From an uncultured Planctomycetales bacterium (lineage in GTDB: Bacteria; Planctomycetota; UBA1135), in the NCBI GenBank assembly GCA_964342475.1, contig CAYFGE010000016.1, positions 2,742 to 66,741 on the forward strand: 64,000 bases of DNA, given 5' to 3'. Of the stretch, positions 9,420 to 59,953 are shown piece after piece (position 1 is the first letter of the stretch; every line of letters begins with the position of its first letter). The position numbers and the translations under genes were made by a program. The notes under the pieces were generated by a model that ran no database searches, was not told where the DNA came from, and saw nothing but the letters and a program-made list of their open reading frames with translations.

Positions 9420-10535
9420 ATGCGGATCCTCGCTCCCCTGCTCCTCCTCCTGCCCGCCTGCGCCTTGGCCCCCGCCTCCGACCCGCCCGCTCCCCTCCCC
9501 CCGGCCGGCCCGGAGATGACCGGCGAGCAGGTCGCCGCCTTCGCCCGCCTGGCCCTCGACGGCATCGTCCGCGAGTACCCGAACAAGCCGTCGAACGTCA
9601 TGGCCGGCGCCGAGGACGTGCGCTCGCCGCGCGCCATGCACCCGGCCTTCTACGGCAGCTTCGACTGGCACAGTTCGGTGCACGGCCACTGGATGCTCGT
9701 GCGGCTGCTCAAGCTCCACCCCGGCAGCCCGGTCGAGGAGGAGGCGCGCGCCAAGCTGGCCGCCCACCTCACGCCCGAGATCCTGGCCGCCGAGACGGCC
9801 TACTTCGAGCCGAAGCACAACCAGAGCTTCGAGCGGACCTACGGCTGGGCCTGGCTGCTGCGCCTGGCGATGGAGCTGCGCGACTGGGACGACGCACAGG
9901 GGCGCGAGTGGGCCGCCGCGCTGGCCCCGCTCGAGGCGCGCATCGTCGAGCTGACCAAGGCCTACCTGCCCAAGCTGAGCTGGCCGATCCGCGTCGGCGA
10001 GCACCCGAACACCGCGTGGGCGCTGGGCGAGTTCCTCGACTACGCGCGCGCCGTCGGCGACGCCGAGCTCGAGGCCCTCGCCGCCGCGCGCGCGCGCGAC
10101 TACTACCTCGGCGACACCGACTACCCGGTGATGTACGAGCCGAGCGGCCACGACTTCTTCAGCCCCGGCCTGCTCGAGGCCGACCTGATGCGCCGCGTGC
10201 TGCCGCCCGACGAGTTCCGCCGCTGGCTCGACGCCTTCCTGCCCGGCCTGCGCCGCGGGGAGCTCGGCAACCTCGGCACCCCGGTCGAGGTCAGCGACCC
10301 GACCGACGGCAAGCTGGTCCACCTCGCCGGGCTGAACCTGGTGCGCGGCTGGACCCTGCGCGGCGTGGCCTCGGCGCTGCCCGAGGGTGACCGCCGCCGC
10401 GCCACGCTGCTCGCCGCCGCGGAGGCCCATGCCCGCGCCGGGCTGGAATACGTCTTCTCCGGGTACTACGAGGGGGAGCACTGGCTGGCGTCCTTCGCCG
10501 TCTACCTCCTCACCGACGCCGGCCTCCCCGAATGA
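9420..10535 (+). CDS. DUF2891 family protein, secreted
   Basis: Signal peptide MRILAPLLLLLPAC. Family strings: YPNKPSNVM, HPAFYGSFDWHSSVHGHWMLVRLL, ERTYGWAWLLRL, GEHPNTAWAL, HLAGLNLVRGW. Confidence 0.85.
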   Translation: MRILAPLLLLLPACALAPASDPPAPLPPAGPEMTGEQVAAFARLALDGIVREYPNKPSNVMAGAEDVRSPRAMHPAFYGSFDWHSSVHGHWMLVRLLKLHPGSPVEEEARAKLAAHLTPEILAAETAYFEPKHNQSFERTYGWAWLLRLAMELRDWDDAQGREWAAALAPLEARIVELTKAYLPKLSWPIRVGEHPNTAWALGEFLDYARAVGDAELEALAAARARDYYLGDTDYPVMYEPSGHDFFSPGLLEADLMRRVLPPDEFRRWLDAFLPGLRRGELGNLGTPVEVSDPTDGKLVHLAGLNLVRGWTLRGVASALPEGDRRRATLLAAAEAHARAGLEYVFSGYYEGEHWLASFAVYLLTDAGLPE

Positions 10536-11731
10536 CCATGTTGCTGCTCCCCTCCCTCCTCCTCGCCGCCCTCCCCCAGGCCGCCGCCCCCGAGGACCCC
10601 GGCCCCCACGCGGTCGGCTGGCGCGACGTCGTCGCCCAGGACACGATCTTCAGCCAGGGCAACGTCCGCGCGCGCTTCTACTACCCCGCCGTCAGCGCCG
10701 GCCAGGACGCCGCCGCCGACCCCTCGGCCGGGCCCTACGTCCTCACCGGCTTCCAGCACGGCTGGCTCGGCAGCCCGTCCGACTACGACGAGCTGTGCAG
10801 CCACCTGGCCAGCTGGGGCTTCGTCGTCGCCTCGACCGGCACCGAGACCGGGCTGTTCCCCGACAAGCCGAAGTACGCGCGCGACACCCGTTCGCTGCTG
10901 CACTGGGCCGAGCAGCAGTCCGGCGTGGCCGGAAGCTGGCTCGAGGGCATGGTCGCGCCGGGGACCGACTGGGCGGTGACCGGGCACTCGATGGGCGGCG
11001 CGACGCTGTCGCTGCTCGTCGGCATCGAGCCGCGGGTGCGGACGGTCATCGGCCTGCAGGCGGCCTCGATGAACGCCACCGGCAACGCCAACCTGCGCGC
11101 CTTCACCGGCCGCGCCTACTGGGTGGCCGGCTCGGTCGACTGGATCGTGCCGAGCGGCACGGTGCGCGCCTGGTACGACCGCGGCGACTCGGCCGCGCGC
11201 AACGTGTTCTGGGAGGTCCAGGGCATGGGGCACGTCGGCTGCACGGACCTGCCCGCCGTCGGCGAGCCGCTGTCGGGCGCCGAGCAGCTGCGCCTGCACA
11301 AGCGCCTGGTGGGCGGCCTGCTGCGCGCCGAGGCCCGCGGCGAGGAGGACCTCTTCGTGTGGACGCTGGGCCAGGGCTTCGCCGGCGAGCCGAGCCTGCA
11401 GCAGAGCCGCTGCGTCGACCCGCCGCTGTGGGCGCGCCTCGACGCCGCGGGGACCACGGTCGAGACCGGCCTCGCCGGCCACCACGGCCGCGGCGGCGTG
11501 CTGGCCTGGTCGCTCGTGCCCGGCAGCAGCATGACGGCCTACGGCGAGCTCGGCCTCTCGCGCAGCGACCTGGTGATCGCCGCGCAGGGCCGCCTCGACG
11601 CCACCGGCGTCCTGCGCCTCGACCTGCCGGTGCAGCCGGGATGGAGCGGGCGCACGCTCCACCTCCAGGCCCTGGCCCTGCGCCCGAGCGGCGGCACGCT
11701 CAGCCGCACCGCCGCGCTCGCCGTCCCCTGA
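10532..11731 (+). CDS. Secreted alpha/beta hydrolase, cutinase/polyesterase (dienelactone-hydrolase-like) type, with an unassigned C-terminal module
   Basis: Its ATG overlaps the DUF2891 stop (ATGA). It has a signal peptide. GFQHGWLGSPSDYDELCSHLASWGFVVAS, the nucleophile elbow GHSMGG, then AGSVDWIVP (Asp) and GMGHVG (His), in the order seen in actinobacterial cutinase/PETase-type esterases. The last ~92 aa (11453..11728) form a separate module; see findings. Confidence 0.85.
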   Translation: MTMLLLPSLLLAALPQAAAPEDPGPHAVGWRDVVAQDTIFSQGNVRARFYYPAVSAGQDAAADPSAGPYVLTGFQHGWLGSPSDYDELCSHLASWGFVVASTGTETGLFPDKPKYARDTRSLLHWAEQQSGVAGSWLEGMVAPGTDWAVTGHSMGGATLSLLVGIEPRVRTVIGLQAASMNATGNANLRAFTGRAYWVAGSVDWIVPSGTVRAWYDRGDSAARNVFWEVQGMGHVGCTDLPAVGEPLSGAEQLRLHKRLVGGLLRAEARGEEDLFVWTLGQGFAGEPSLQQSRCVDPPLWARLDAAGTTVETGLAGHHGRGGVLAWSLVPGSSMTAYGELGLSRSDLVIAAQGRLDATGVLRLDLPVQPGWSGRTLHLQALALRPSGGTLSRTAALAVP

Positions 11732-13540: not shown

Positions 13541-13575
13541 GCTAGCCGCCAGGAGGACCTGCCTAGAATCCGCGC

Positions 13576-15915
13576 ATGGAGCGTTCCATGATTCCGGGGA
13601 GCCGAGGAGCGACCGAGCTGCGGCACCGCATCCCCGCTCCGGGTGACGGGCGCCTCGTGCTCGAGGTCCCCGCACTGGCCGGGCACGGCCACGTCTCCCT
13701 CGACGGCGCACCCCTCGCCCTGCTCGAGCCCGCCTGGACCACGCAGCGCGTCCCGCTCGACGACGCGCACGAAGGGAGCGAGCTCCACCTCCGGGTGGAC
13801 GCGGCGCCCGGGCACCGCTTCCGCGGCTTCCTCCCCGACGTCGACGCCGCGCCGCGCGGTCTGTGGCAGGGCGCCTTCCTGCGCCGCACCGGCCCGGCCT
13901 GCTTCCTCGGCCGGCCCCGGCTCGAGTGGCCGGACGACGAGCCGCGGCTCGAGACGGAGTGGGACGGCCCGGACGAGGCGACGGTCGAGGTGGACTGCGA
14001 CGAGCTCCAGCTGTGGTCCCCCGCCCAGCCGCGCGTCGGCCGCATGCGCGTGCGCCTCATGGTCGGCGGCGCGCTGTCCGACGAGGAGGTGCTGCCGGTG
14101 GGCGCGCGCCGCCTCGAGGCCGAGGGCGAGCGGATGCTGCTGAACGGCGAGCCCTTCCGCGTGCGCGGCCTGCTGCACTGGGGGCTCTACGCCGGCCTCC
14201 CCGGCCCGGATCCCGAACCGGAGGCGCTGCGCCGCGAGCTGCGCGAGACGCGCGCGCGCGGCTTCAACCTGCTCAAGTGCTGCCTGTGGATCCCGCCCAC
14301 GCGCTTCCTCGACGTGTGCGACGAGGAGGGCATGCCGGTGTGGCTGGAGTACCCGCTGTGGAACGAGCCGCTCACGCCGGACGCCGTCGAGGCCTACCGC
14401 GCCTTCCTCGCCCACGACGCGGCGCACCCGTGCGTCGTGATGCGCACCTTCACCTGCGAGAACGACCGCCGCGACGCGGACGCCAGCCGCGCGGTGGCCG
14501 GACTGGTGCGGCGGCACGACCCGAACGCGCTGCTGGCCGACAACAGCGCCTGGCTGGGCCACACGCACGTGGCCGACTTCCACGACGAGCACCCCTACCT
14601 GCACGACGCGCAGTGGCCGTCCTACCTGGTGCGGCTCCGCGCGGCGCTGGACGAGCAGCCGGCCCGGCCGCTGCTGCTCGGCGAGACGATGGTGGCCGAC
14701 GCGCTGGCCGGCGACGCGCCCGAGGCGGTCGAGTCCCGGCGGATGGCGCTGGCGGTGCGCCGCTTCCAGGCCGAGAGCTTCGTCCGCGCCTTCCCCGATG
14801 CCGGCTACGTGATCTGCGGCGCCAGCGACGCGCCCAAGGCTCCGCTCGGCCTGCGCGACGCCGCCGGCGTCTGGAAGGACCCGCCCGAGGCCTGGGCCTG
14901 GCAGCGGGCGCTGGCCGGCGGCGGCCCGGCGCTGCCGGGGCGGGCGGCCGCTGCCGCGGTCTGGCCGACGGGACCGGCCGGAGCGCCGCTGAGCCTGCCC
15001 GACGGCGTCGAGGTGGTCGAACGCCTCGGCCCGGGGCAGCTCGCGGCGCTGCGCGAAGGCGCCCGCCTGCTGCACCTTGCCGGACCGCGCTCCGGCTCGT
15101 GGCGGACCCCCGAGGCCCTGTTCTGGAGCTGGCTGCCGGTCTTCTCCGGCCCGGCGGCGACGGGCCGGCTGCGCGAGCTGCTGGTCGACCAGCTCCCATT
15201 CGACCTGCTGTCCGGGCGCCGGCTGGCACGCCATCCTGGGGCGGCCGTGGTCGTCGGCTTGGCCGACCTGCACGACGCGCCGGCCGAGGCCCCGCGGCCG
15301 CCGACACCCCTGGTCCTGGCCGCCCGGGTCGGCCGCGGCCGGCTGCTGGTCAGCTCGCTTCGCGCCGACACCGGCGCCGGCCGGGAGGTCCACGCCCGCC
15401 TGGCGGCGGCCCTGCTCGGGCCGGACGGTGACCGCGGCGCCGCCGGAGGCGGCGAGGGCGGCCTGGAGCTGCCGACGATCGAGCTGGCCGCGCCGCCTCC
15501 GAGCCACTTCCTGGACGGCCCGTGGGAGCTGGACGGTCGCCGCTTCGCCACCGGCACCCTGCTGGCCAACTGCGGCGCCAACTCCGCCTGGGGCGCCCGC
15601 AGCGTGCACGGCCGGCTGGGACCGACAGGCCTGCCGCCGGGCCCGGCCACCCTGCACGCCGCGGCGGTGGCGGACGGCTGGGAGCTGCTCGCCGACGGCC
15701 GGCTGCTCCACCGCCACGGCAACCCGGGCCGCACCTGGGACGCCGGCCGCGACCGGCCGGCCGCGGTGCTGCTGCCGCCCGAGCTCCTGGGGCGGGCCGA
15801 GCGCGGCGGGGTGGCCCTGGAGTGGCGGCTGCACGACCACCGGGGCGCCGGGCTGCTGGTCGGGCCGGTCTGGCTGGCGGCCGGCCCGCCGGGCCCCCTC
15901 GGGCCGCTGGCCTGA
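13576..15915 (+). CDS. Glycoside hydrolase, GH2-like TIM-barrel enzyme (779 aa)
   Basis: LLNGEPFRVRGLLHWG, RELRETRARGFNLLKCCLWIPP, CDEEGMPVWLEYPLWNE and MRTFTCENDRRD resemble the GH2 sugar-binding plus catalytic-barrel junction. No signal peptide was seen. The start (13576 vs Met5 at 13588) is uncertain. Confidence 0.7.
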   Translation: MERSMIPGSRGATELRHRIPAPGDGRLVLEVPALAGHGHVSLDGAPLALLEPAWTTQRVPLDDAHEGSELHLRVDAAPGHRFRGFLPDVDAAPRGLWQGAFLRRTGPACFLGRPRLEWPDDEPRLETEWDGPDEATVEVDCDELQLWSPAQPRVGRMRVRLMVGGALSDEEVLPVGARRLEAEGERMLLNGEPFRVRGLLHWGLYAGLPGPDPEPEALRRELRETRARGFNLLKCCLWIPPTRFLDVCDEEGMPVWLEYPLWNEPLTPDAVEAYRAFLAHDAAHPCVVMRTFTCENDRRDADASRAVAGLVRRHDPNALLADNSAWLGHTHVADFHDEHPYLHDAQWPSYLVRLRAALDEQPARPLLLGETMVADALAGDAPEAVESRRMALAVRRFQAESFVRAFPDAGYVICGASDAPKAPLGLRDAAGVWKDPPEAWAWQRALAGGGPALPGRAAAAAVWPTGPAGAPLSLPDGVEVVERLGPGQLAALREGARLLHLAGPRSGSWRTPEALFWSWLPVFSGPAATGRLRELLVDQLPFDLLSGRRLARHPGAAVVVGLADLHDAPAEAPRPPTPLVLAARVGRGRLLVSSLRADTGAGREVHARLAAALLGPDGDRGAAGGGEGGLELPTIELAAPPPSHFLDGPWELDGRRFATGTLLANCGANSAWGARSVHGRLGPTGLPPGPATLHAAAVADGWELLADGRLLHRHGNPGRTWDAGRDRPAAVLLPPELLGRAERGGVALEWRLHDHRGAGLLVGPVWLAAGPPGPLGPLA

Positions 15916-16792: not shown

Positions 16793-17523
16793 ACGCCACC
16801 CGCACCATCTTCAAGCGCGAGTTCGCCGGCTACTTCGCCACCCCGCTCGCCGCCGTCTACCTGGTGATCTTCCAGGCGCTGACCGGAATCTTCACTTTCA
16901 ACCTGGGCGGCCTCTACGAGAGCGGCCAGGCCAGCCTGCGGCCCTTCTTCGGCTTCCTGCCGCAGCTCTTCCTGTTCCTGGTGCCGGCGATCGCCATGCG
17001 CATCTGGGCCGAGGAGCGGCGGCTCGGCACGGTCGAGCTGCTGATGACCCTGCCGGTGTCGATCGGCGAACTGGTCGCCGGAAAGTTCCTGGCTGCCTGG
17101 GCCTTCGCCGGCGTCGCGCTGGGGCTGACGGTGCCGCTGTGGCTGACCGTCAGCTACCTCGGCGACCCCGACCATGGCGTCATCCTGACCAGCTACTTCG
17201 GCGGCGCGCTGATGGCCGGCGCCTTCCTGGCGGTTGGCTCCTGCCTTTCGGCGCTGACCAAGAACCAGGTCATCGCCTTCGTGCTGTGCCTGCTCGCCTT
17301 CTTCGCCCTGCTGCTCAGCGGCTACCCCGGCTTCGCCGAGCTGGTGCCGGGCTGGATGCCGGAGGTCCTCGTCGACGCGCTCGCCTACCTCAGCTTCCTC
17401 AGCCACTACGAGGCGCTCCAGAAGGGCGTGATCGACCTGCGCGACGTGCTGTTCTTCCTCACGGTGATCGGCGCCTCGCTGTTCGTCAACGCGCTCGTCC
17501 TGGACTGGAAGAAGGCGGACTAG
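16789..17523 (+). CDS. ABC-2 type transporter permease (GldF-like)
   Basis: Its GTG overlaps the ATPase stop (GTGA). Six hydrophobic segments. The N-terminus IFKREFAGYFATPLAAVYLVIF is typical of this family. Confidence 0.9.
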   Translation: MNATRTIFKREFAGYFATPLAAVYLVIFQALTGIFTFNLGGLYESGQASLRPFFGFLPQLFLFLVPAIAMRIWAEERRLGTVELLMTLPVSIGELVAGKFLAAWAFAGVALGLTVPLWLTVSYLGDPDHGVILTSYFGGALMAGAFLAVGSCLSALTKNQVIAFVLCLLAFFALLLSGYPGFAELVPGWMPEVLVDALAYLSFLSHYEALQKGVIDLRDVLFFLTVIGASLFVNALVLDWKKAD

Positions 17524-17533
17524 GAGGGGAGTC

Positions 17534-19411
17534 ATGAAGAAGAAGAGAACCGCACTGGCCGGCGTCCTCGCCGTCGGCGTGATCTTCCTGGCGGTCAACC
17601 TGATCGCCGGGCTCGGGCTGCGGCACGCCCGCATCGACATGACCGCCGAGGGCCTCTACAGCCTGTCGGACGGCGCCAAGGAGATCCTCCGCGGCATCGA
17701 CGAGCCCATCCGGCTCGACCTCTACGAGTACCTGGACGAGATCAAGGAGGACCGCCCCGACCTCGTCAACCACGCCCAGCGCATCCACGAGTTCCTCGAG
17801 GAGATGGTGCTGGCGGCCGACGGCCGCCTGGAGCTGCGCGTTCGCAAGCCGGAGCCCTACTCCGAGGCCGAGGACGACGCCCGCGCCGCCGGCGTCGCCG
17901 CGGTGCCGACAGACCGCGCCGGGGACCGCATCCTTTATCTGGGCCTGGTGGCCACCAACTCGGTCGACGAGCAGGAGGTCGTTCCGTTCTTCCAGCCCGG
18001 ACCGGACCGCGAGGCCTTCCTCGAGTACGACCTGGCCAAGATGGTCCACTCCCTGGCCCAGGCCACCAAGCCGAAGGTCGGCGTGCTCAGCTCGCTGCAG
18101 GTGGACGCCCGCATGGACCCCACCAACCCGCGCGGCGGCATGACGCCGGCGTGGCAGATCCTGACCCAGCTCCGCGACCTCTACGAGGTGGAGATGATCC
18201 AGCCCGATGCCGCCGCGCTGCCGGCGGATCTGGGCGTGCTCCTGGTGGTCCACCCCAAGGGCCTGGGCGAGGAGCTGCTCGACGCCATCGACCAGTTCGC
18301 GCTCCACGGCGGCCGCATCCTGGTCTTCCTCGACCCCTACTGCCAGGAGGAGCGCGCGCAGCAGCCGGCCAACCCCTACGGCCAGCCGCCGCCGCCGCCG
18401 GCACCGTCAGACCTGGGGCCGCTGCTGGCCTCCTGGGGCGTCGACTGGGACCCGGCGAAGGTCGTGGCCGACCGCGAGCTGGCCTTGCAGGTGCCGATGC
18501 AGGGCCAGCGCGGCTACGAGTACGTCGACCACGTCGCGGTGCTCGGGCTGGGCGCCGCGCAGATGGCCGAGGGCGACCCGGTCGTCGGCGGCCTGAAGAC
18601 GGTCCGCATGGCGATGGCCGGCGAGCTGAAGGGCATCGAGGGCGCCGCCACCACCTTCGAGCCGCTGATCTCCACCACCGCCGACTCGATGCTGCTGAAC
18701 GGCGCGCGCTTCGCCTACCTCTACGACCACGGCGAGCTGCTGACCGGCTTCGTGGCGGACGAGGGCGGCCACGTGCTGGCGGCGCGGGTCAGCGGCCCGC
18801 TGGTCACCGCCTACCCCGAGCGGGAGGGCGAGGGCCGGCTGACGGAATCGAGCGCCGACGCCCAGATCCTCCTGGTCGCCGACGTCGACTTGCTGGCGGA
18901 CTACCTGTGGGTGCAGGAGGAACGGCTGGGCCCGATCTCCCTCGGCCTGCGGGTGACCGCCGACAACGGCAACCTGGCCCTGAACGCCGTCGAGCTGCTC
19001 GGCGGCAGCCCGGCGCTGGCCTCGATCCGCGGCAACCGCAGCTACCAGCGGCCCTTCGACGTCGTCGAGGAGCTCGAGCGGGAGGCGGACGCGAAGTACA
19101 GGACGCGCGAGAGCGACCTGGAGCAGGAGATCCGCGACGCCGAGATGCGGATCAACGAGATGCAGCGCGGCAAGAGCGCCGAGGAGGCGATGATCCTGTC
19201 GCCGGAGCAGGTCGAGGAGATCGACAAGCTCGAGAAGCAGATGCTGGCAGCGCGCAAGGAGCTGCGGCAGGTGCGCCACGAGCTGAACAAGGACATCGAG
19301 GCGCTGGGCACGCGCCTGATGCTGGCCAACACGGTCGTCGCGCCGCTGCTCGTGGCGGCGCTGGCCTTCCTGTGGCACCTGCGGCGCGCCAAGCGGAAGC
19401 GCGCCGCCTGA
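17534..19411 (+). CDS. GldG-like ABC-transporter auxiliary protein (N- and C-terminal membrane anchors)
   Basis: AGGAGG lies 5 nt upstream of the ATG. It has an N-terminal TM, family strings LYLGLVATN and LLVVHPKG...ALHGGRILVFLDP, and a C-terminal TM (NTVVAPLLVAALAFLW). Confidence 0.9.
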   Translation: MKKKRTALAGVLAVGVIFLAVNLIAGLGLRHARIDMTAEGLYSLSDGAKEILRGIDEPIRLDLYEYLDEIKEDRPDLVNHAQRIHEFLEEMVLAADGRLELRVRKPEPYSEAEDDARAAGVAAVPTDRAGDRILYLGLVATNSVDEQEVVPFFQPGPDREAFLEYDLAKMVHSLAQATKPKVGVLSSLQVDARMDPTNPRGGMTPAWQILTQLRDLYEVEMIQPDAAALPADLGVLLVVHPKGLGEELLDAIDQFALHGGRILVFLDPYCQEERAQQPANPYGQPPPPPAPSDLGPLLASWGVDWDPAKVVADRELALQVPMQGQRGYEYVDHVAVLGLGAAQMAEGDPVVGGLKTVRMAMAGELKGIEGAATTFEPLISTTADSMLLNGARFAYLYDHGELLTGFVADEGGHVLAARVSGPLVTAYPEREGEGRLTESSADAQILLVADVDLLADYLWVQEERLGPISLGLRVTADNGNLALNAVELLGGSPALASIRGNRSYQRPFDVVEELEREADAKYRTRESDLEQEIRDAEMRINEMQRGKSAEEAMILSPEQVEEIDKLEKQMLAARKELRQVRHELNKDIEALGTRLMLANTVVAPLLVAALAFLWHLRRAKRKRAA

Positions 19412-19435
19412 GCGCGAACCGACGGAGGAGAGAGG

Positions 19436-20578
19436 ATGAACGCCAAGACTCTGGGAACCCTGGGCGTGGCCGCAGTGGCCCTGGCGGCCGTGGCGGTGCT
19501 GGTGCACCGCTCCGGCCAGCCGGGCGGTGCGGAGGCCGACCTCGGCCCGCTGAGCCCGGGCCTGACCGAGGGCATCAACCAGGCCCGCGCCCTGGTCGTC
19601 GAGCAGGGCGGCGAGCGGATGGAGTTCCGCCGCGGCGAGGACGGCGGCTGGAGCTCGCCGGCGCCCGACGGCTTCCCGGTGATGGCCGACCGCGTCCGCG
19701 AGGTCCTGATCCAGCTCGCCCGGCTGGAGAAGAAGGACGCCCTGACCAGCAAACCGGAGCGCTGGGCGGCGCTGCAGCTCGACCCGCCCGGGCCGGACTC
19801 CGAGGCCCGCGCGGTCCGGCTGCTCGGCGAGGGCGACGCGACCCTGCTCGACCTGGTGGTCGGCAAGGACAAGTGGGGTGCCAACCCGGGCGTCTACGTG
19901 CGCCTGGCCGACGAGGAGCAGACCTGGCTGTGCGACGGCCGCCTGAGCCTGCCGCGCGCCACCAGCGACTGGATGGAGAGGCGGGTCGCCCAGCTGGCGA
20001 TGGCCGACGTCGCGACGGTCGTGCTCGAACGCGGCGGGGAGACCCTGTCGGTGAGCCGGCCGGAGGAGGAGGAGGAGGAGGCCGACGGCGGCTTCGGCGC
20101 GGTGGATTGGCAGCTCGCCGAGCTGCCGGAGGGCCGGGAGCTGACGACGCCCAACCCGCTCGGGCGGATCGCCGGCGCCCTCGGCTGGCTCAGCTTCGAG
20201 GACGTCCGCGCCGCCGCGTCGGTGCCGACCGACGGCGAGCCGAGCTTCGTGGCCCGCTACACCACGACCCAGGAGCAGCAGGTCGTGATCCGCGGTTGGG
20301 AGCACGACGGCGAGCTCTGGTGCCGGCTGGAGGCCAGCTTCGTCGGCGAGGAGCCGGCGGAAGAAGCCGCCGCGGCGGAGGAGGACCCGCGCGACCAGGT
20401 CGAGGAGTGGAACGCTCAGTGGCAGGGCTGGCTCTACTCCTTCCCGGCGACGAGCGCGGACCTGTGGAAGTCCGAACTCGAGAGCCTGCTCGAGCCCCTG
20501 CCGGAGCCGGCGGAGGACGAGGCGACGGAGACCGAAGGCTACACCGAGCCCCCGACCGACGGCGACGGCCAGGGCTGA
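19436..20578 (+). CDS. DUF4340 domain protein (N-terminal anchor, acidic C-terminus)
   Basis: GGAGGAG SD site. The N-terminal TM and its position directly after a GldG-like gene is the usual DUF4340 context. Contains a poly-Glu tract, PEEEEEEADGG. Confidence 0.8.
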   Translation: MNAKTLGTLGVAAVALAAVAVLVHRSGQPGGAEADLGPLSPGLTEGINQARALVVEQGGERMEFRRGEDGGWSSPAPDGFPVMADRVREVLIQLARLEKKDALTSKPERWAALQLDPPGPDSEARAVRLLGEGDATLLDLVVGKDKWGANPGVYVRLADEEQTWLCDGRLSLPRATSDWMERRVAQLAMADVATVVLERGGETLSVSRPEEEEEEADGGFGAVDWQLAELPEGRELTTPNPLGRIAGALGWLSFEDVRAAASVPTDGEPSFVARYTTTQEQQVVIRGWEHDGELWCRLEASFVGEEPAEEAAAAEEDPRDQVEEWNAQWQGWLYSFPATSADLWKSELESLLEPLPEPAEDEATETEGYTEPPTDGDGQG

Positions 20579-20651: not shown

Positions 20652-21652
<1,001 letters not shown>

Positions 21653-21656
<4 letters not shown>

Positions 21657-26987: not shown

Positions 26988-28433
26988 ATGCGTCCGCCCC
27001 TCCCCCTGTTGCTCGCCTGGATCGCCGGCGCCCCGGCCGCCGTCGCCCAGGAGGCCGCGCCCGCCCCCACCCCTCCCCCCGTCCGCGTCGCCTGCGTCGG
27101 CGACTCGATCACCTACGGCTCGGGGCTCCCGGACCGCGAGCGCACGACCTATCCGCTGCTGCTCGGCCACCTGCTCGGCGAGGGCTACGAGGTGCGCAAC
27201 TTCGGCGTCAGCGGCGCGACGATGCTCCGAGCGGGCGACCGCTCCTGGTCCGCGACCGATGCAGCGCGACGAGCGCTGGACTGGCGACCGGAGGTGGTCG
27301 TCATCCAGCTGGGCACGAACGACTCGAAGGCCGTCCACTGGGACCACCACGGCGCGGCGTTCGAGGCGGACGCCCAGGCCTTGATCAGCGACTTCCGCGC
27401 CGCCGCACCGGCGGCACGGATCCTGTTGTGCCTGCCGGTTCCGGCCTGGACCGAGGGCGAGGGCATCGACGGCGGCCGCGTGGCCGAGGGCGTGGTGCCG
27501 GCGCTGCGTCGCGCAGCGGAGGCCGAAGCGGTCGAGCTGCTCGACCTGCACACGGCGCTGCGCGACCGCGAGGCTTGGTTCCCCGACGGGGTGCACCCCG
27601 ACCCTCACGGCGCCGAGGCCATCGCCCGACGGGTGGCCGCGGCGCTCCTGCGCGAGCCGAGCGACGACGAAGCCCCCCGCTTCAACCCCTGCGTGGTGCC
27701 GCAGCCCAGCGTCGAGTGGCGCGGCGCGGCGGCCGGCTGGGGCGGCGGCACCTGGTGGCAGCAGCACGAGGCCATCCTCCGGCTGGGCGCCGAGCACCCC
27801 GACCTGGAGCTGGTCTTCCTCGGCGACTCGATCAGCCAGGGTCTGACCGGCGCCGGCGACCGGCTGACGCACCCCGGCGGCGAGCGGGCGGTGGACCGCG
27901 CCCTCGGCGCGCGCCGCGCGGCCAGCTTCGGCCTCTCGGGCGACCGCACCGAGCACCTCCTGTGGCGGATCGAGCACGGCGCCTTCGACGCCGTCGACCC
28001 ACGCCTCGTCGTGCTGATGATCGGCGTGAACAACATCAACACCGGCGGCGACCGCGGCGAGGACGTCGCCGCAGGCATCGCGGCGGTGGTGCACCTCCTG
28101 CGCGCGCGCGAGCCCCAGGCCGAGATCCTCCTGCTCGGATGCTTCCCGACGAAGGAGGCCGGTTCCTGGGCGCGGCGGCAGACCGAGCTCGTCCACGAGC
28201 GCATCGCGCCGCTGGGCGGACTCGGCGGCGTGCGCTACCTCGACCTGCGCCCGCTCTTCCTGCGCGCCGACGGCCGCCTCGACCCGCGCACGATGCGCGC
28301 CGACGGCGTCCACATCACCGCCGCCGGCCAGGAGGCCTGGCTCGCGGCGATCGCCCCGGTGGTCGCGGAGGTGCTCGACGGCGGGGCCGCGACCGGCGGC
28401 GCTACTGCACCGTCACGGTCCGGACGTCGCTGA
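26988..28433 (+). CDS. Secreted tandem SGNH/GDSL hydrolase (two esterase domains, 481 aa)
   Basis: Signal peptide. Domain 1: ACVGDSITYG, GVSGAT, GTNDS, DGVHPD. Domain 2: FLGDSISQG, GLSGDRTEHLLWR, GVNNI, DGVHIT (PAF-acetylhydrolase-like subtype). The 3-prime end overlaps the convergent BNR gene by 32 nt. Confidence 0.85.
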   Translation: MRPPLPLLLAWIAGAPAAVAQEAAPAPTPPPVRVACVGDSITYGSGLPDRERTTYPLLLGHLLGEGYEVRNFGVSGATMLRAGDRSWSATDAARRALDWRPEVVVIQLGTNDSKAVHWDHHGAAFEADAQALISDFRAAAPAARILLCLPVPAWTEGEGIDGGRVAEGVVPALRRAAEAEAVELLDLHTALRDREAWFPDGVHPDPHGAEAIARRVAAALLREPSDDEAPRFNPCVVPQPSVEWRGAAAGWGGGTWWQQHEAILRLGAEHPDLELVFLGDSISQGLTGAGDRLTHPGGERAVDRALGARRAASFGLSGDRTEHLLWRIEHGAFDAVDPRLVVLMIGVNNINTGGDRGEDVAAGIAAVVHLLRAREPQAEILLLGCFPTKEAGSWARRQTELVHERIAPLGGLGGVRYLDLRPLFLRADGRLDPRTMRADGVHITAAGQEAWLAAIAPVVAEVLDGGAATGGATAPSRSGRR

Positions 28434-30078
28434 CCGCGCCGAAGCGCCGCGCCGGCGGCGCCACGGCCACGGCGGCGAAGTGCAGCCGCGTGCCGGGCGG
28501 AACGCTCGGCGGGAAGACCGTCGGCGGCGTCGAGCCCGAGCCGTCCCCCGCGAGGACGCCGCGCAGCGCCGGGTGTCCGGCGGTGGAGAGCAGCAGCGTG
28601 TCGGCGGCGAGACCGAGCGCGCGGCCGTCGCCCCAGGGCAGCCGCGCCGCGCCCGGGCCGAGGGCCAGGGCGACCTGGAAGGACCAGCCCGCCTCGTCGT
28701 GCGGGAAGCCCGCCGCGCGGAAGGAGGCCGTGCCCCCCGCGGCGAAGACCCCCTGCGGGACGACGTTGGCGGCGCGGAAGCCGGCGGCCCAGACCTGGTC
28801 GCGGTTCCCGACCGGGTCGCGCTCGAGCCAGACCGCGAGCTGGTCGTCGTAGCGCGCGTCGCGCAGCAGCCGCGCGGCCGCCAGGCCGCTGCCGGTGTCC
28901 ACCGTGAAGGCCGGGCCGGGGTCCGGGACGGGCGCGCGCGACACCGCGGCGTAGAGCTGGGCCGAGCCGTTCCACAGCACGGCGAAGCCGCCGCGCGCGG
29001 AGTCGCCGACCAGCTGCGGCTCGTGGCCCGGCGTAGCGAACAGCGCCCGCTCGGTCCAGCTGGCGCCGCCGTCGGCGGTCCAGGCGATCCACGGCGTGCG
29101 CAGGCCCGGCGTCAGGCGGTCGTCGGCCCAGGCCACGACGAGGTGGCCGGGGACGAACAGCAGGCGCGGGTTCTGCGCCACGCTGGCCGGCGAGAGCGAG
29201 CCCGCCACGCGGGTGTGGCCGGGTGTCCAGCTGACCCCGCCGTCCGCGGACTGGAAGACCCCGACCGCGCACAGCGCGCTGACCTCCTGGAAACCGACCG
29301 CCACGCGGCCGCCGTCCGCCGCCACGGTGAGGTCGGAGGGGTCGGTGACCAAGCCGCTCGAGAGCTCGACCCGCGGCTGCCAGCTGGCGCCGAGGTCGGT
29401 GCTGCGTCGGTAGCGCAGGTCGCGGAAGAAGGCGCCGGCCGAGTCGTCCTGCCACGCTGCGTGCAGCGCGGCGCCGTCGCGCACCAGGGCGATGCGCCCG
29501 ACCGCCGCGCCGGAGGCGAGCAGGACGCTCGCGCCCCAGGTGGCGCCGCCGTCGGTCGAGCGCACGAAGCGCAGCTCGTCGCCGGACGGGCCGGCCACCA
29601 AGAACAGCGCACCGACGATGCCGGTGGCCGGGTCGGCGGCCACGCGCAGCTCGCGCACCGCGGCCGCGCCCGGGGCGTGGCCGTCGTCGAGGCGCAGCTC
29701 GATCCCCCACCCGGTCGGCGCCCAGCGGCGCGCGCGCAGGTCGTCCGCCCCGGCGCGCGCGTCGCGCCACAGCACGACGAGGCCGTCGCCGAGCCAGTGG
29801 ACAGCGTCCTCGCCGAGCCGCTTGGTCGCGCCGGCAGGATCGAGGTCGACGGGTTCGCGCGGGCCGAAGGCCGCGCCGCCGTCCGCGGAGCGGGCCAGCC
29901 AGACGTGGTCGCCGCCGAGCGCGGCGTCGACCCAGGCCACGGCGGCGCGGCGCTCGTCGAAGGCGGCCGCCGGGTGCGCGGCGGACACGGGGTTGCCGGC
30001 GTCGACCCGGACCGGCGGACGGACGTGCTGGTCCTGGGGAGCGGCGAGACTGAGAACGGCGAGGAGCGGCAGGAACAT
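28402..30078 (-). CDS. Secreted BNR/Asp-box beta-propeller protein (sialidase-like fold) with an unassigned C-terminal module
   Basis: Short signal peptide. Asp-boxes SADGGAAF, STDGGATW, STDLGASW, SADGGVSW, TADGGASW. GGGAGGA SD site 6 nt upstream of the ATG. The last ~110 aa (28405..28734) form a separate module. Confidence 0.85.
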   Translation of the reverse strand: MFLPLLAVLSLAAPQDQHVRPPVRVDAGNPVSAAHPAAAFDERRAAVAWVDAALGGDHVWLARSADGGAAFGPREPVDLDPAGATKRLGEDAVHWLGDGLVVLWRDARAGADDLRARRWAPTGWGIELRLDDGHAPGAAAVRELRVAADPATGIVGALFLVAGPSGDELRFVRSTDGGATWGASVLLASGAAVGRIALVRDGAALHAAWQDDSAGAFFRDLRYRRSTDLGASWQPRVELSSGLVTDPSDLTVAADGGRVAVGFQEVSALCAVGVFQSADGGVSWTPGHTRVAGSLSPASVAQNPRLLFVPGHLVVAWADDRLTPGLRTPWIAWTADGGASWTERALFATPGHEPQLVGDSARGGFAVLWNGSAQLYAAVSRAPVPDPGPAFTVDTGSGLAAARLLRDARYDDQLAVWLERDPVGNRDQVWAAGFRAANVVPQGVFAAGGTASFRAAGFPHDEAGWSFQVALALGPGAARLPWGDGRALGLAADTLLLSTAGHPALRGVLAGDGSGSTPPTVFPPSVPPGTRLHFAAVAVAPPARRFGAVSDVRTVTVQ

Positions 30079-30141
30079 CGGTTTCCTCCCGCTCCGATCC
30101 TACCCCGGATCCGGAGACCCGGGGGTGGAAGCGCCGCTCGA

Positions 30142-31803
30142 TCAGAAGAGCACGAACTCGGCGGCCGGGGTGGCCGCGACGCCGCCGGGGGCGCCCGGGT
30201 CGCGTACGAACCACTGCGCGAAGCGGGTCACGCCGACGAAGGCCGGGTTGGCCGGGACCTGGAACACGCGGGAGGTGGTGCCGTCGCCGGGGCCGCTGCC
30301 GTCGAGCTGCGCGAAGAAGCGCTCGGCGCCGGGGCTCAGGGCCAGGTAGACGGTCGCGCCCTGGAACAGCTGGCCCGCCGGGACCGAGTTGGCGTCGATG
30401 ACCAGCGCCGCCATCGCGCCGCCCAGACCGCGGTCGAGGCCGAGGGTCAGCGAGTCGTTGCCCAGCACCGGCGGCTCGAGGGCCACCATCACCGGAGCGG
30501 CGCCGCCGCTGCCCGGGGTGGGCTGGCCGAAGACGCGCGGCTGCTTGCCGGAGGCGGCGAAGAGCACCGGGCGGTCGAAGGGCGCCTGGCCGTTGCGCAC
30601 GCGCGGGTCGGTCAGGGGGCGGCCGAGGAAGGCCAGGAGGTCGGCGCGCTCGCCCGGGGTCAGGTTGAGCGGGCGGATCGAGGGCGCCTTGTTGGGTCCG
30701 TTGAAGTCGCCGCCGCGGTTGTAGAAGTCCACCACCGCGCCGAGGCTCGCCGCGGTGCCGCCGTGGAAGTAGGGCGCGCGCAGCTCGACGTTGAGCAGCG
30801 ACGGCGTCTTCATCTGCCCGTTCTGGCGCACGTCGCCGGTGACGCCGCCGAGCCCGAGGTCCTCGTTCTGCGGCCGCACGCCGGTGTAGTGGAAGCCGTC
30901 GAGGCTGAAGCGCGGGCCGCCGTGGCAGGTGTTGCAGGCCAGGCGCGGCGAGTTGAACAGCATGAAGCCGCGGTGCTCCTGCATGGTCAGCGCCTGCATG
31001 TTGCCGGCCAGGAAGTCGAAGATCGGTGCCTGGTCGGTGTACAGGGTGCGCTCGTAGGTCGCGATGGCCATCGCGATGCGGGCGGGCGTGACGTCGGCCG
31101 TGCCGAAGGCCTCCTGGAACAGGTCGGGGTAGCCGCGCCCGTTCAGCCAGGCCGCCAGGTCGGGCGTGACCCCGCCCGACAGCGCCAGCGGCTCGGCGGT
31201 GGCGATCTGCGCAGCGACCTGCGCCCAGTCGCGGCCCTCGTGGGCCATCTCGACCTCGCTGACCGGCGGGCCGAGCACCTGGCTCTCGAGCGCGGCGAAG
31301 CGGTTCAGCACCACCTGGTTGCTGATCGGGTCGACGAAGACCTCCTCGGCGCGACCGTCCCAGAACATGCGCGGGCCGTAGCCGCCGTTCAGGGACGGCA
31401 TCGAGCGCCGGCCGGTCACCTGCGGGGCCAGCGAGAAGACCGGGTCGGCCACGTAGCTGCCGTCGGCCGCGCTGCGCACCACGCCGGGAGAGCCGGCGAC
31501 GTCGTCGGGCGTGCCGAGGACGCCGTCGGGGCCGGGGTGCGTGCTGCGCGGGTCGCCGAGGACGGAGCGCGGGTCGGAGCCGCCGAACTCGGGAAGGTGG
31601 CAGCTGCCGCAGGACATCGTCCGGGTCGAGCTGAGCTGCTCGTCCCAGAACAGGGTCTTGCCGAGCAGGGTCTTCGACGGGGTGACCGGGTTGCCGGGGG
31701 GGGCCGGCGGGGGCAGCAACGGGCCGCCGCCCTGGGCCAGGGCCGGCGACACCAGCGCGGCCAGCGCGAGGCCGGCCAGGGGGACGCGGAGGGAGAGGGT
31801 CAT
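30142..31803 (-). CDS. Di-haem cytochrome c peroxidase / MauG family protein with an unassigned C-terminal module
   Basis: Signal peptide. Two CxxCH motifs (CGSCH, CNTCH). TPSLLNVELRAPYFHGGTAASL. The last ~104 aa (30145..30456) lie beyond the usual CCP fold. Confidence 0.9.
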   Translation of the reverse strand: MTLSLRVPLAGLALAALVSPALAQGGGPLLPPPAPPGNPVTPSKTLLGKTLFWDEQLSSTRTMSCGSCHLPEFGGSDPRSVLGDPRSTHPGPDGVLGTPDDVAGSPGVVRSAADGSYVADPVFSLAPQVTGRRSMPSLNGGYGPRMFWDGRAEEVFVDPISNQVVLNRFAALESQVLGPPVSEVEMAHEGRDWAQVAAQIATAEPLALSGGVTPDLAAWLNGRGYPDLFQEAFGTADVTPARIAMAIATYERTLYTDQAPIFDFLAGNMQALTMQEHRGFMLFNSPRLACNTCHGGPRFSLDGFHYTGVRPQNEDLGLGGVTGDVRQNGQMKTPSLLNVELRAPYFHGGTAASLGAVVDFYNRGGDFNGPNKAPSIRPLNLTPGERADLLAFLGRPLTDPRVRNGQAPFDRPVLFAASGKQPRVFGQPTPGSGGAAPVMVALEPPVLGNDSLTLGLDRGLGGAMAALVIDANSVPAGQLFQGATVYLALSPGAERFFAQLDGSGPGDGTTSRVFQVPANPAFVGVTRFAQWFVRDPGAPGGVAATPAAEFVLF

Positions 31804-50810: not shown

Positions 50811-50830
50811 GGTCGGGGCCTCGGGTGGGC

Positions 50831-50854
50831 AGCGGGCGTCGCCCGCTCCTTTTT
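50831..50854 (+). terminator. Terminator-like hairpin plus T5 inside the tetR / fadI divergent region
   Basis: AGCGGGC-gtc-GCCCGCT is a perfect 7-bp stem, followed by ccTTTTTc. There is no plus-strand gene upstream for it to terminate, so its role is unclear. Confidence 0.35.
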
Positions 50855-50857
50855 CGG

Positions 50858-50893
50858 TTGACGGCGTTAACTTTACACCGTTAATCTTAGGAG
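50858..50893 (+). promoter_or_regulatory. Candidate sigma-70-type promoter, repeat operator and SD site for the fadI/fadJ-like operon
   Basis: TTGACG (50858-63), 18 nt, TAATCT (50882-87). The hexamer CGTTAA occurs twice (50865-70, 50879-84) and includes the palindrome GTTAAC. AGGAG (50889-93) lies 10 nt before ATG 50904. Confidence 0.45.
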
Positions 50894-56503: not shown

Positions 56504-58048
56504 CTACAGGAACAGGTGGGTGATCACGTTGCTGATCTGGCAGCCGGTGGTGTCGGCGGCCTGCACGTTGAAGGTCTTGCCCGAGGCGTTGGCCGGCACG
56601 AACTTGGTGAAGGTCGCGTTGCCGCTGGCGTCGGCCGAGACCGAGCCGCCGTTGCGCGGGTTGGCCAGGCCGAGGAACAGGCCGCTGCAGCCCGGGACCG
56701 AGCTGCTGCCGGCGTTGCGGCTGAAGTAGATCGTCACCGAGCCGTTGGCCGTCGCACCGGAGATGTCGATGCGGTTGGTCTGGCCGGCGCTGCCGGGGAT
56801 CGGGCCGGCGATCGTCAGCGAGCCGCCGCCGCCGCCACAGCCGTTGGTCAGGCAGTTCCGGCTGTTCTTGTAGCTGGTGATGGCGTTGATGCTGGCGTTG
56901 CCGAAGCTGCTGACGTTGCCGGAGCAGCCGCCGTTGCAGGGGCACATGATGCGGCAGGTCGAGCAGCCCGAGCAGCTCGAGCAGCAGTGACCGGCGTTCC
57001 AGTTGTGGCCCAGCTCGTGGGCGGTCAGGGAGACGCGGCGCGACCAGTTGGTGGTGTAGCGCGACTCGACGACCGAGTAGCCGTAGCTGTTGCAGATGCC
57101 GCCCAGCCAGGCGATGCCGATGGTGCCGCCGTTGATGCTGCGGCCGGTGAACAGCTCGGCCACGTCACGCTGGATGCTGCCCTGGTTCGACAGCCACTCG
57201 CTGCGGAACTGGTTGAGCAGGGTGCCGGCGTCGTTGCTGGTGTAGGGGTTCGACGCGCTGCTGGTGCGGATGACGACGGTGGTCAGGTCGTAGCAGATGC
57301 CGACGTCCTGCTGGTAGATGGCCTCGGTGTCGTTGAGGACCGCCTCGATGTCGTTGACCGTGTTGGTCGAGTTGCTGCCGTTCTTCTGGTAGAACTGGAA
57401 GTCGGCGTCCGCAGCGATCTCGCAGGTCTCGTCGGCGCGCGCGCCGCGGCCGCCGCCGAGGGCGCCCGGGTCGCTGTGGTCGTGGCCCTGGTGGCTGCCG
57501 CTGTTGCTGCTGCCCTGGCTGGGCGGCGCGACCGCGACCGGCGGGAGGAGGGGTTCGGCCAGGCGGTAGCCGCTGTCCGGCACGACGTCCGCGGCGTCGT
57601 AGACCACGTGCAGGTCCTTCGCGGCGGTGGTGTCGAAGTCGGTCAGGGGCTCGATCATGCGGACCGAGCTGCCGTCGTGGAGCTGGATGCGGGCGCGGAG
57701 CTGGCCGTCGATGATCGAGGCGGAGACCACGCTGCCGGGGATGCCGGCCACGAAGCCGCGGTAGGTCACCGGGGTGCCGACCTCGACCTCGCGCATCTGG
57801 CCGTCGGCGCCCTGCTCGAGGACGCGGAAGCCGGCCGCGCGGACGGAGTACGGGTCGAGCACCAGCTCGGCGTCGAACCAGTCGTCCAGGACCACGCGGG
57901 TCTGGAAGGACTGGCCGGCCGCGGCGGGCACTTCGAGGGATTGGACGGACCAGGCGTAGAACTCCTTCTCGAGGTTGTTCGCGCCGGGTTCACCGCCAGC
58001 CGGGACGAGCGCGGCGGACAGCAGCAGGGTCGGGAGGGTCAGGAGCAT
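56504..58048 (-). CDS. Secreted reprolysin/ADAM-like (M12B) metzincin with a Cys-rich segment and an unassigned C-terminal module (514 aa)
   Basis: Starts at Met50 of ORF 56504..58195 (MLLTLPTLLLSAALVPA, a signal peptide). HELGHNWNAGH (about nt 56987..57019) is followed by CCSSCSGCSTCRIMCPCNGGCSG, with a CxIM Met-turn as in reprolysins. The last ~105 aa (56507..56821) form a separate module. Confidence 0.85.
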   Translation of the reverse strand: MLLTLPTLLLSAALVPAGGEPGANNLEKEFYAWSVQSLEVPAAAGQSFQTRVVLDDWFDAELVLDPYSVRAAGFRVLEQGADGQMREVEVGTPVTYRGFVAGIPGSVVSASIIDGQLRARIQLHDGSSVRMIEPLTDFDTTAAKDLHVVYDAADVVPDSGYRLAEPLLPPVAVAPPSQGSSNSGSHQGHDHSDPGALGGGRGARADETCEIAADADFQFYQKNGSNSTNTVNDIEAVLNDTEAIYQQDVGICYDLTTVVIRTSSASNPYTSNDAGTLLNQFRSEWLSNQGSIQRDVAELFTGRSINGGTIGIAWLGGICNSYGYSVVESRYTTNWSRRVSLTAHELGHNWNAGHCCSSCSGCSTCRIMCPCNGGCSGNVSSFGNASINAITSYKNSRNCLTNGCGGGGGSLTIAGPIPGSAGQTNRIDISGATANGSVTIYFSRNAGSSSVPGCSGLFLGLANPRNGGSVSADASGNATFTKFVPANASGKTFNVQAADTTGCQISNVITHLFL

Positions 58049-58288: not shown

Positions 58289-59953
58289 TCAGGGCAGAAT
58301 CGTCAGCGGGCGCGGCACGGACACGAGGCGGGCGCCGTTCGTGTCGTAGCTCACCACGCAGCCGCGGAAGGTCTCGCCGACGCGCGGGGTCAGCCACAGG
58401 GCGTCGCCGATGTAGATCGTCGAGCCGGCGCCGTTGGCGTCGAGCACGCCGTGCGGGGCGGTGAAGATGCGCGGCCAGTCGGCGTTCACCGTGCGGTCGA
58501 ACATCGGGTCCTGCGTCAGCGGGATGTCGATGCCCGAGTAGTTGGTCGGGCCGATGCCGCTGTAGCTGAGCAGGATGGCGTAGTTCATGCCCGCCTCGGT
58601 GTCCGGGAAGTCGAACTGGCAGTCGACCTGGCCACCCGCGGCCGCACCCATCTCGATCACGTCGGTGAAGAAGATCGGGTCGAAGGTGTACAGGTAGGCG
58701 CTGCCCGCGCCGGCCTTGCCGCCGGCGCTGTCGGCCTTGTGCGCGCCGATGACGAACTCGGCGCAGCCGTCGCCGTCGAGGTCGCCGAGACCGGAGCCCG
58801 AGCGACCGAAGGCGTCGCCGGCCACGCCGGTGGCGAACTCGCGCACCAGCGCACCGGTGCTCGAGTTGTACAGGCGGGCGAAGCCGGTGTCGGCCGAGGT
58901 GGCGCCGGGAGCGCCGACCAACAGCTCGTCCACACCGTCGCCGTCCACGTCGCCGGCGTTGGCCAGGCCGAAGCCCATCGTCGTGCCGGCGGCGCCGTCG
59001 AACTGGTGCAGCAGCGCGCCGCTGAAGACGGAGAACACGTAGGCCGCGCCGACGCCGTTGGCGTTCGGGGCGCCGACGAGCAGGTCGGCGAAGCCGTCGC
59101 CGTCCACGTCGCCGATGCCGGCCACGTCACCGCCCAGCTGCTCGGCGCCGTTGCCGACGACCTGCAGGAGCTGCGCGCCCGTGGCGCCGCTGTAGACGCT
59201 GGCGAAGCCCGCGCCGCCGTTGGCCTCGGCCGAACCGACGAGGATGTCGGGGTAGCCGTCGCCGTCGACGTCGCCGGCGAAGTCGACCGCCGCGCCGAAG
59301 TACTCGTAGGAGCCGGCGCCGTCGATGCGCAGCAGCTCGGCGCCGGTGGCGCCCGAGTAGCAGAACACCGAACCGACCGCGACGCCGTTCACCACGGCGT
59401 TGCGCGCGCCGACCAGGTAGTCGTTCACGCCGTCGAGGTCGACGTCCATGCCGCCGGCCACGTCACCGCCGAAGCGCTCGGCCGAGACCGTGCCGAAGTG
59501 GAGGCGCAGCGGAGCGCCGGCCGCGGAGGACCACACGTAGGCGCGGCCGGCCAGCGTGACGCCGGTGTTCTTGTTGCTGCCGAGCCAGCCGCCCGCGACG
59601 AAGTCGTCCTTGCCGTCGCCGTCGACGTCGCCGATCCAGTCGGCGGAGATGCCGAGGCGGTCCCAGCGCGAGCCGTAGGCGGAGGCGAGCACGGAGCCGT
59701 CGGCGCCGGAGAGGACGTCGATGCGGCCGTTCTGTTCGGAGCCGGGGAGGACGGCCTTGTGGCTACCGACGAGCCAGTCGCCGATGCCGTCGCCGTCGTA
59801 GTCGCCGCCGCCGGCGACCGAGAAGCCGAAGTGCTGATCGGCGGCCGAACCTTCGAAGAGGCCGGCATCCCCCCACACCCCGCCCACGAGCTGGGCGGAG
59901 GCCGGGGTGGCGAGCGCCGCGGCGCTCACGAGGAGGAGGGAGAGGCGGAACAT
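58289..59953 (-). CDS. Secreted FG-GAP repeat (integrin-alpha-like beta-propeller) protein with an unassigned C-terminal module
   Basis: Signal peptide MFRLSLLLVSAAALATPASA. Seven repeats of the FG...GDVDGDG(x)DLLVGAP type (GDYDGDGIGDWLVGS, GDVDGDGKDDFVAG, GDVDGDGYPDILVGS, GDVDGDGFADLLVGAP, GDVDGDGVDELLVGAP, GDLDGDGCAEFVIGA). The last ~114 aa are at 58292..58633. Confidence 0.9.
   Translation of the reverse strand: MFRLSLLLVSAAALATPASAQLVGGVWGDAGLFEGSAADQHFGFSVAGGGDYDGDGIGDWLVGSHKAVLPGSEQNGRIDVLSGADGSVLASAYGSRWDRLGISADWIGDVDGDGKDDFVAGGWLGSNKNTGVTLAGRAYVWSSAAGAPLRLHFGTVSAERFGGDVAGGMDVDLDGVNDYLVGARNAVVNGVAVGSVFCYSGATGAELLRIDGAGSYEYFGAAVDFAGDVDGDGYPDILVGSAEANGGAGFASVYSGATGAQLLQVVGNGAEQLGGDVAGIGDVDGDGFADLLVGAPNANGVGAAYVFSVFSGALLHQFDGAAGTTMGFGLANAGDVDGDGVDELLVGAPGATSADTGFARLYNSSTGALVREFATGVAGDAFGRSGSGLGDLDGDGCAEFVIGAHKADSAGGKAGAGSAYLYTFDPIFFTDVIEMGAAAGGQVDCQFDFPDTEAGMNYAILLSYSGIGPTNYSGIDIPLTQDPMFDRTVNADWPRIFTAPHGVLDANGAGSTIYIGDALWLTPRVGETFRGCVVSYDTNGARLVSVPRPLTILP

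Follow-up and report, generated by a model that had tools for sequence, protein, structure and literature searches.

The C-terminal domains of the type IX secretion system (T9SS), which in that system are termed type A (Por_Secre_tail, PF18962/TIGR04183) and type B (CHU_C, PF13585/TIGR04131), are immunoglobulin (Ig)-like sandwiches of ~80-130 aa. They stand at the extreme C-terminus, often behind a linker, of signal-peptide-bearing cargo proteins of unrelated functions, and strong sequence divergence around the Ig-like fold is typical of them. Ig-like/E-set domains also follow the propellers of bacterial sialidases (the linker) and of integrin alpha (the thigh), and domains of the pre-peptidase C-terminal (PPC) type occur on secreted proteases after flexible linkers. 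We analysed a stretch of 64,000 nucleotides (the window) from an uncultured Planctomycetales bacterium (GenBank assembly GCA_964342475.1, contig CAYFGE010000016.1, positions 2,742 to 66,741 of the forward strand), in which five proteins with different catalytic or scaffold domains each end in a beta-rich tail of ~110-130 aa. Family profiles sort these tails, by sequence, into three types, which we call A (the tails of a BNR and of an FG-GAP propeller protein), B (that of a reprolysin-like protease and, probably, that of an alpha/beta hydrolase) and C (that of a di-haem enzyme). The reading that we favour, with moderate confidence and partly by analogy, is that the tails would be a family of non-catalytic Ig-like accessory domains on Sec-exported enzymes, the three types probably being related, very remotely, within one superfamily.

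Comparison with described C-terminal domains

The tails of this genome resemble the T9SS domains in size, terminal position, divergence and frequent linker, and type A also in its predicted Ig-like fold, but the Por_Secre_tail and CHU_C hidden Markov models (HMMs) and the TIGR sorting domains gave no match to any tail or family consensus at E<=10, nor to the full-length proteins at E<=1. Further differences are that most homologues have type C in an internal position, that type A goes with a single protein family and that the type A structure model is nearest to V-set Ig domains. The planctomycetes are not known to have a T9SS, and no gene of its translocon and attachment complex (SprA/Sov, PorV, PorU, PorZ and others) was found in the ~84 kb of this genome that were read (the window and the loci L087 and L090).

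Type A resembles the post-propeller Ig-like/E-set domains in that it comes after a BNR (sialidase-type) and an FG-GAP (integrin alpha-type) propeller and has the predicted fold of an Ig-like sandwich, but the likeness is one of architecture, with no sequence or close structural match. Secreted metalloproteases and subtilases can also bear small beta-sandwiches of the PPC (PF04151) or Big_9 (PF17963) kind at their C-termini. The reprolysin tail gave a weak Big_9 match (15.8 bits, E 0.028) that lies under the gathering cut-off of 23.6 bits, and no other tail or consensus matched this model; PPC gave no match at E<=10, and type B occurs on non-proteases as well. The combination of motif, transmembrane helix and basic cluster of the PEP-CTERM/exosortase, LPXTG/sortase and GlyGly-CTERM systems is absent from the tails, and the autotransporter beta-barrel (PF03797; ~250-300 aa, 12 strands) is unlike tails of 110-130 aa that have no Pfam match and, for type A, a sandwich model. 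The sequence-only reading had likewise seen no T9SS, PEP-CTERM, LPXTG or autotransporter features in the tails, and these results agree with it.

It had also been unable to name a family for the tails, and we could not name one either. Apart from the sub-threshold Big_9 match, Pfam and NCBIfam gave no match to the tails or to the family consensus sequences even at E<=10, and the tail parts of the full proteins were unmatched. Profile searches of the PDB sequences with all three type profiles gave no significant match, and no description of such a domain was found in a literature search. Neither the five-tail alignment nor the BNR tail retrieved anything in word-indexed protein searches; because an 88%-identical protein sits in the representative library, these blanks are uninformative on the distribution of the tails. 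The same kind of search with the type B tails returned two proteins only.

The five carriers and their tails

The window has a G+C content of ~74%, its host being an uncultured high-GC planctomycete, and identical proteins are present on metagenome contigs of project PRJEB17505. The catalytic or scaffold domains assigned to the five open reading frames (ORFs) by the sequence-only reading were all recovered. On the minus strand these are a BNR/Asp-box propeller protein (28402-30078), a CCP_MauG di-haem enzyme (30142-31803), an M12B reprolysin-like protease (56504-58195, or 563 aa, from an upstream ATG; 56504-58048, or 514 aa, from an internal one) and an FG-GAP propeller protein (58289-59953); on the plus strand there is an alpha/beta hydrolase with chlorophyllase- and PETase-like matches (10532-11731). 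The N-termini of all five carriers are, by inspection, hydrophobic and signal-peptide-like, as had been claimed, although in the reprolysin-like protease the signal-like sequence begins only at an internal ATG (58048), from which public assemblies also call the gene. The reading frame from the ATG at 58195 adds a 49-residue Arg/Pro-rich leader (58048-58195).

The prediction of further carriers in the genome was borne out by a sixth, a 619-aa FG-GAP_3/UnbV_ASPIC protein (L087, 6487-8346, plus strand) that lies ~6 kb past the right end of the window and has a type B tail at its C-terminus.

The beta-rich C-terminal domain and the order of its elements, as originally drawn, were both recovered. 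The extent had been drawn too short, since the true start lies 25-40 residues upstream of the hydrophobic strand that had been taken as the first element, which gives the ~110-130 aa reported here, and the example strings had been listed in an order that differs from that of their carriers. The core pattern (beginning D-[AGS]-[STN]-G) fits the BNR, hydrolase and reprolysin instances and fails for the other two of the five. It was fitted after the fact, and it had no other match in the 104,000 aa of six-frame ORFs of the window or in ORFs of related loci that total 685,000 aa (~790,000 residues in all).

Direct comparison of the five tails

Taken by themselves, the five tails are barely more similar in sequence than expected by chance. 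Smith-Waterman comparison against shuffled sequences gave z values of ~4 for the BNR-hydrolase, BNR-protease, BNR-FG-GAP and hydrolase-protease pairs, and of ~0-2 for the remaining six of the ten pairs, four of which were at the level of the shuffles. HMMs built from four tails never ranked the fifth above spurious ORFs of the window, and HMMs from five-tail alignments found no further carrier in it. A MAFFT alignment of the five tails was dropped as the basis of a family, the alignments being unstable. The alignment of the five tails that had been proposed as a check of their kinship is thus near noise, and it is through the profiles of the individual families that the tails could be sorted.

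Type A: tails of the propeller proteins

The type A tail of the BNR protein (28405..28794, minus strand; ~130 aa) corresponds to the family HMM match at residues 436-565 of the ORF. A phmmer search with this tail against 1.84 billion representative sequences gave 81 matches, nearly all of them BNR proteins that are ~560-600 aa long and end in the tail, and in the 79 domain matches of the family the tail stops at most two residues from the protein end. The terminal residues themselves vary (Q, P, L, E and others). The propeller of the window BNR protein was matched by the N-terminal part of 61 of the 65 full-size type A relatives in BLASTP, and the other four show the same repeat pattern by eye.

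The BNR-tail HMM also found the tail of the FG-GAP protein (58292..58657, minus strand) at E 1.3e-5 among 356 ORFs of the window. HHalign comparison of this tail with the profile of 77 BNR tails gave a local probability of 92-93% (92.6%) at E 1e-7 to 5e-7 (4.5e-7) and a global z of 17. These matches place the FG-GAP tail firmly with the BNR tail in type A, which, judged from its relatives, is co-inherited with one BNR propeller family and is almost confined to that family plus this one FG-GAP protein.

An AlphaFold2 (AF2) model of the BNR tail (28405-28773), computed from the type A alignment, had a mean predicted local distance difference test score (pLDDT) of 96.6 and a predicted template modelling score (pTM) of 0.89, and showed an all-beta sandwich of eight strands with one short helix. 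In a Foldseek search of the PDB with this model, the top 50 matches were antibody V-set Ig domains, with a probability of ~1.0 and a template modelling (TM) score of only ~0.47, and no T9SS C-terminal domain was among them. We are confident from this model that type A is an Ig-like beta-sandwich without a close solved relative, and it is for type A only that the two-sheet Ig-like fold of ~100-130 aa was found.

A 42-residue remnant of a type A tail end ('...LELWFAAVSYRAGSVRLGAITDARRILFS') lies a short way upstream of the CCP gene, in a different frame, in the Planctomycetota metagenome-assembled genome (MAG) J029 (L013, ~5741-5870). The HMM matched it at E 3.7e-8, no propeller gene precedes it, and it looks like the relic of a neighbouring BNR-type gene.

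Type C: the domain of the di-haem enzyme

The type C domain (30145..30555, minus strand) belongs to a di-haem CCP/MauG-like enzyme that matched CCP_MauG at E 1e-33 and the MbnH and MauG models below their cut-offs. Comparison with the solved structures of CCP-, MauG- and MbnH-like enzymes showed that these reach only to about residue 400 of the query, so that its last ~150 residues, which include the type C domain, have no counterpart in them. The closest relatives, at 79% identity, come from MAGs labelled uncultured Planctomycetales or Planctomycetota, and homologues are found widely in both Planctomycetota and Acidobacteriota, with identities of 48-79%, many of the acidobacterial ones being at 48-55%.

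The domain is conserved in 82 homologues of the genome collection (83 tails with that of the window), at 30-66% identity across the two phyla. It is terminal in ~16 of the 82, mostly from Planctomycetota, and internal in ~65, mostly from Acidobacteriota, where 90-370 further residues lie downstream. These residues comprise CarboxypepD_reg, Calx-beta with DUF4214, DUF4214 alone, or a FlgD_ig/CHU_C-like domain, the enzyme family being modular after type C in homologues from other phyla (L010, L016, L044, L084). One homologue, from Eisenbacteria, has a clear FlgD_ig and a weak CHU_C match on an extra terminal domain downstream of type C. In this distribution among homologues, type C behaves as an integral domain of the enzyme. 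A tblastn search of 11 related planctomycete loci found no orthologues of the BNR, hydrolase, reprolysin or FG-GAP proteins beside the CCP gene.

Type B: the reprolysin tail and its relatives

The type B tail of the M12B protease (56507..56833, minus strand) is preceded by the linker GGGGG and has a pair of Cys residues. Tails of this type were also found on a ThuA-like protein that adjoins the CCP gene in two related MAGs (L005, L006), on a subtilase-like fragment (P0083) and on another M12B protease from an unrelated metagenome (L085), and the type B HMM matched the tail of the UnbV_ASPIC protein beyond the window at E 1.1e-8. The Cys pair is conserved in several of these tails, which suggests an oxidising, extracytoplasmic location. 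An AF2 model of type B from four sequences reached a pLDDT of 56; it was unusable and was not used.

The tail of the alpha/beta hydrolase (11402..11728, plus strand; best-supported stretch 11546-11674) is probably a divergent member of type B. It was the top non-member match of the type B HMM (E 3.7e-4, 356 ORFs), HHalign aligned it locally with type B at 81% probability and E 1.2e-5 over 39 columns (range E 1e-5 to 1e-4), and the global alignment was colinear end to end with a z of 6.0 against shuffles; it was not recruited by the iterated type B search. No relative turned up when metagenomes were scanned with the full hydrolase, and this tail therefore has no family profile of its own.

Relationship between the three types

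Local HHalign scores of 16-20 between the types were dropped as evidence of kinship, as scores just as high were obtained with reversed profiles and with a real but unrelated sandwich, CarboxypepD_reg (18.8 against type A). Global profile-profile alignment, with reversed profiles, column shuffles and CarboxypepD_reg as controls, discriminates better. Comparison of types B and A gave a global score of 25.2 (P 8.8e-5, 111 columns), against 3.6 and 4.2 for the reversed profiles, a maximum of 10.8 for the shuffles and 3.6-3.8 for CarboxypepD_reg. Comparison of types B and C gave 16.8, against 1.5 and 1.4, a maximum of 8.3 and 2.0-3.8, respectively. For types A and C the score was 11.0, with 14.2 and 16.6 for the reversed profiles, a shuffle maximum of 7.2 and 2.0-3.6 for CarboxypepD_reg.

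The B-A alignment keeps the register that the sequence-only reading had proposed for the tails, and the final strand is common to both types ('ISNV...' in B, 'ITDV...' in A). HMM searches with type B point the same way: the HMM matched the CCP tail of L009 (MAG NAT19) at E 4.3e-4 among 3,860 sequences, again in the earlier register, an iterated search recruited all 83 CCP tails and no decoy from ~3,800 sequences, and type A tails crowd the zone just under the threshold. Types A, B and C are therefore, as far as these profile statistics indicate, probably one divergent superfamily connected through type B. The earlier idea of a shared module thus survives as a probable remote homology, weaker and more heterogeneous than had been claimed and divided into three types.

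Accessory domains or sorting signals

In the mechanism that we propose, the Sec pathway would export the whole carrier protein, an N-terminal signal-like sequence having been observed on every carrier, and the tail, set off by a Gly/Pro-rich linker, would form a sandwich of its own, as has been shown in part. By analogy with the Ig-like, PKD, carbohydrate-binding module (CBM)-like and PPC domains of other secreted enzymes, the tail would serve as an accessory module, keeping the enzyme on a substrate, a matrix or an envelope component or orienting it there, or else stabilising it, and type A would act as a post-propeller domain. It would not be a signal that is read and removed by a dedicated sorting machine.

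The ends of the five tails are beta-strand-like (...RTVTVQ, ...AEFVLF, ...AALAVP, ...THLFL and ...PLTILP), and the tails have no membrane anchor, hydrophobic helix, basic C-terminal cluster, sorting motif or conserved terminal signature. The sorting-signal models of NCBIfam gave no match to them. The ~84 kb of the genome encode an RND pump, ABC transporters, glycosidases and fatty-acid oxidation enzymes, and no secretion, sorting or processing machinery genes were found there. The suggestion of a single sorting, anchoring or display tag with dedicated machinery is not supported, because type C is mostly internal, type A is tied to one family, no sorting motif was found and no machinery gene lies in the ~84 kb.

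The points that weigh against the accessory-domain reading concern both the kinship of the tails and their role. With respect to kinship, the claim of a single superfamily draws on twilight-zone sequence statistics: the reciprocal HMM searches from C to B and from A to B were not significant, types A and C were not linked directly, their global score being below the reversed control, the HHalign probabilities were low (32% for A-B, 4-15% for B-C), and only one of the three types, A, has a reliable structure model. With respect to role, binding or stabilisation is proposed by analogy only. Every tail copy seen in this genome is at the extreme C-terminus, and all the type B tails found are terminal, several of them behind a Gly-rich linker; the type B tails are borne by at least four clearly unrelated scaffolds, or five if the hydrolase is counted. 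Tails are carried by five of the ~12 signal-peptide proteins in the window, a frequency expected of a tag; three of those that lack a tail resemble lipoproteins.

These last points are those that favour the alternative in which the tails, at least those of type B, are the recognition domains of a C-terminal-domain-dependent secretion or surface-attachment pathway analogous to the T9SS, with Sec export, recognition at the outer membrane and then release or anchoring. This alternative, which we consider unlikely, would also account for the presence of six carriers with unrelated catalytic domains and signal-like N-termini within ~74 kb (the five of the window and the UnbV_ASPIC protein beyond it), for the occurrence of type B on M12B, S8-like, ThuA-like and UnbV_ASPIC proteins and probably on an alpha/beta hydrolase, often after a Gly-rich linker, and for the strong divergence around an Ig-like fold that the tails have in common with T9SS domains. 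A 2026 study speculates on a T9SS-like C-terminal-domain system in Akkermansia, of the Planctomycetes-Verrucomicrobia-Chlamydiae (PVC) superphylum (PMC13524802), and no sequence link was found between the tails and the Akkermansia protein of that study.

Against such a pathway stand, besides the blank searches with Por_Secre_tail, CHU_C and the TIGR sorting domains, the variable tail ends and the lack of machinery genes, the positions of the tails themselves. The tail is the last domain in the six carriers of the genome, in the type A relatives and in all the type B tails, but not in the ~65 of 82 type C homologues in which further residues follow, and in Eisenbacteria it is a FlgD_ig/CHU_C-like domain that follows type C. 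Type A, for its part, is restricted to one enzyme family and one FG-GAP protein. Type B alone behaves as a portable C-terminal module, and it is mainly for this type that a role as a tag keeps a small probability. On present evidence, an accessory Ig-like domain is the more likely reading of the tails than a sorting signal.

The points on kinship are those expected if there were no common module, and the tails belonged to three unrelated families of C-terminal beta-sandwiches whose order of elements is that of any small sandwich in a Gly/Ala/Pro-rich, high-GC proteome. The failure of the leave-one-out HMMs, the six of ten pairs with z at ~2 or below, the A-C score below its reversed control, the searches from C and A that did not reach B, the HHalign probabilities of at most 32% and the local score of 18.8 for an unrelated sandwich are all consistent with this alternative, to which we also give little credence. 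It does not explain why the global score reached 25.2 for B-A when no control exceeded 10.8, and 16.8 for B-C when none exceeded 8.3, nor the match of the type B HMM to the L009 CCP tail, the iteration that adds CCP tails only, the enrichment of type A tails just below the threshold of the type B searches and the specificity of the core pattern for three of the tails.

A narrower version of the pathway alternative, and to us a still less probable one, is that the tails, above all those of type B, are the cargo signal of an undescribed C-terminal-domain export or attachment pathway of Planctomycetota, a PVC counterpart of the T9SS, with types A and C as older, enzyme-integrated relatives of the same fold. 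That the tails are transient, PPC-like aids to folding or secretion, removed when the enzyme matures, is very unlikely: secreted proteases of two kinds, M12B and S8-like, do bear type B tails behind flexible, Gly-rich linkers, but PF04151 gave no match, the module is also found on proteins without the means of self-processing (ThuA-like, UnbV_ASPIC, hydrolase, propeller and haem proteins) and type C is internal in most homologues.

Neighbouring genes

Between the carriers lies a fatty-acid beta-oxidation set (47714-54403 and 62007-63701), with an acyl-CoA dehydrogenase, a thiolase, a fused enoyl-CoA hydratase/3-hydroxyacyl-CoA dehydrogenase and an AMP-binding ligase, which is ordinary metabolism unrelated to the tails. 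The only transporter-accessory pair of the window, an ABC_transp_aux/DUF7088 (GldG-like) protein and a DUF4340 protein (17468-20578, plus strand), is located just upstream of an ABC ATPase (20652-21656), and nothing links this pair to the tails. A 782-aa ORF (13567-15915, plus strand), a gene of 775 aa in public assemblies, has a third-position G+C content (GC3) of the coding type and no Pfam match at E<=0.001; it bears no tail.

Significance

If the three types of tail are one superfamily, a large share of the exported enzymes in a poorly known planctomycete lineage bears a domain that lacks annotation, and a profile of the tails would help to annotate secreted proteins now labelled 'hypothetical' in Planctomycetota and Acidobacteriota. 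Were type B in fact a sorting signal, a new route of secretion or anchoring in the PVC superphylum would be indicated.

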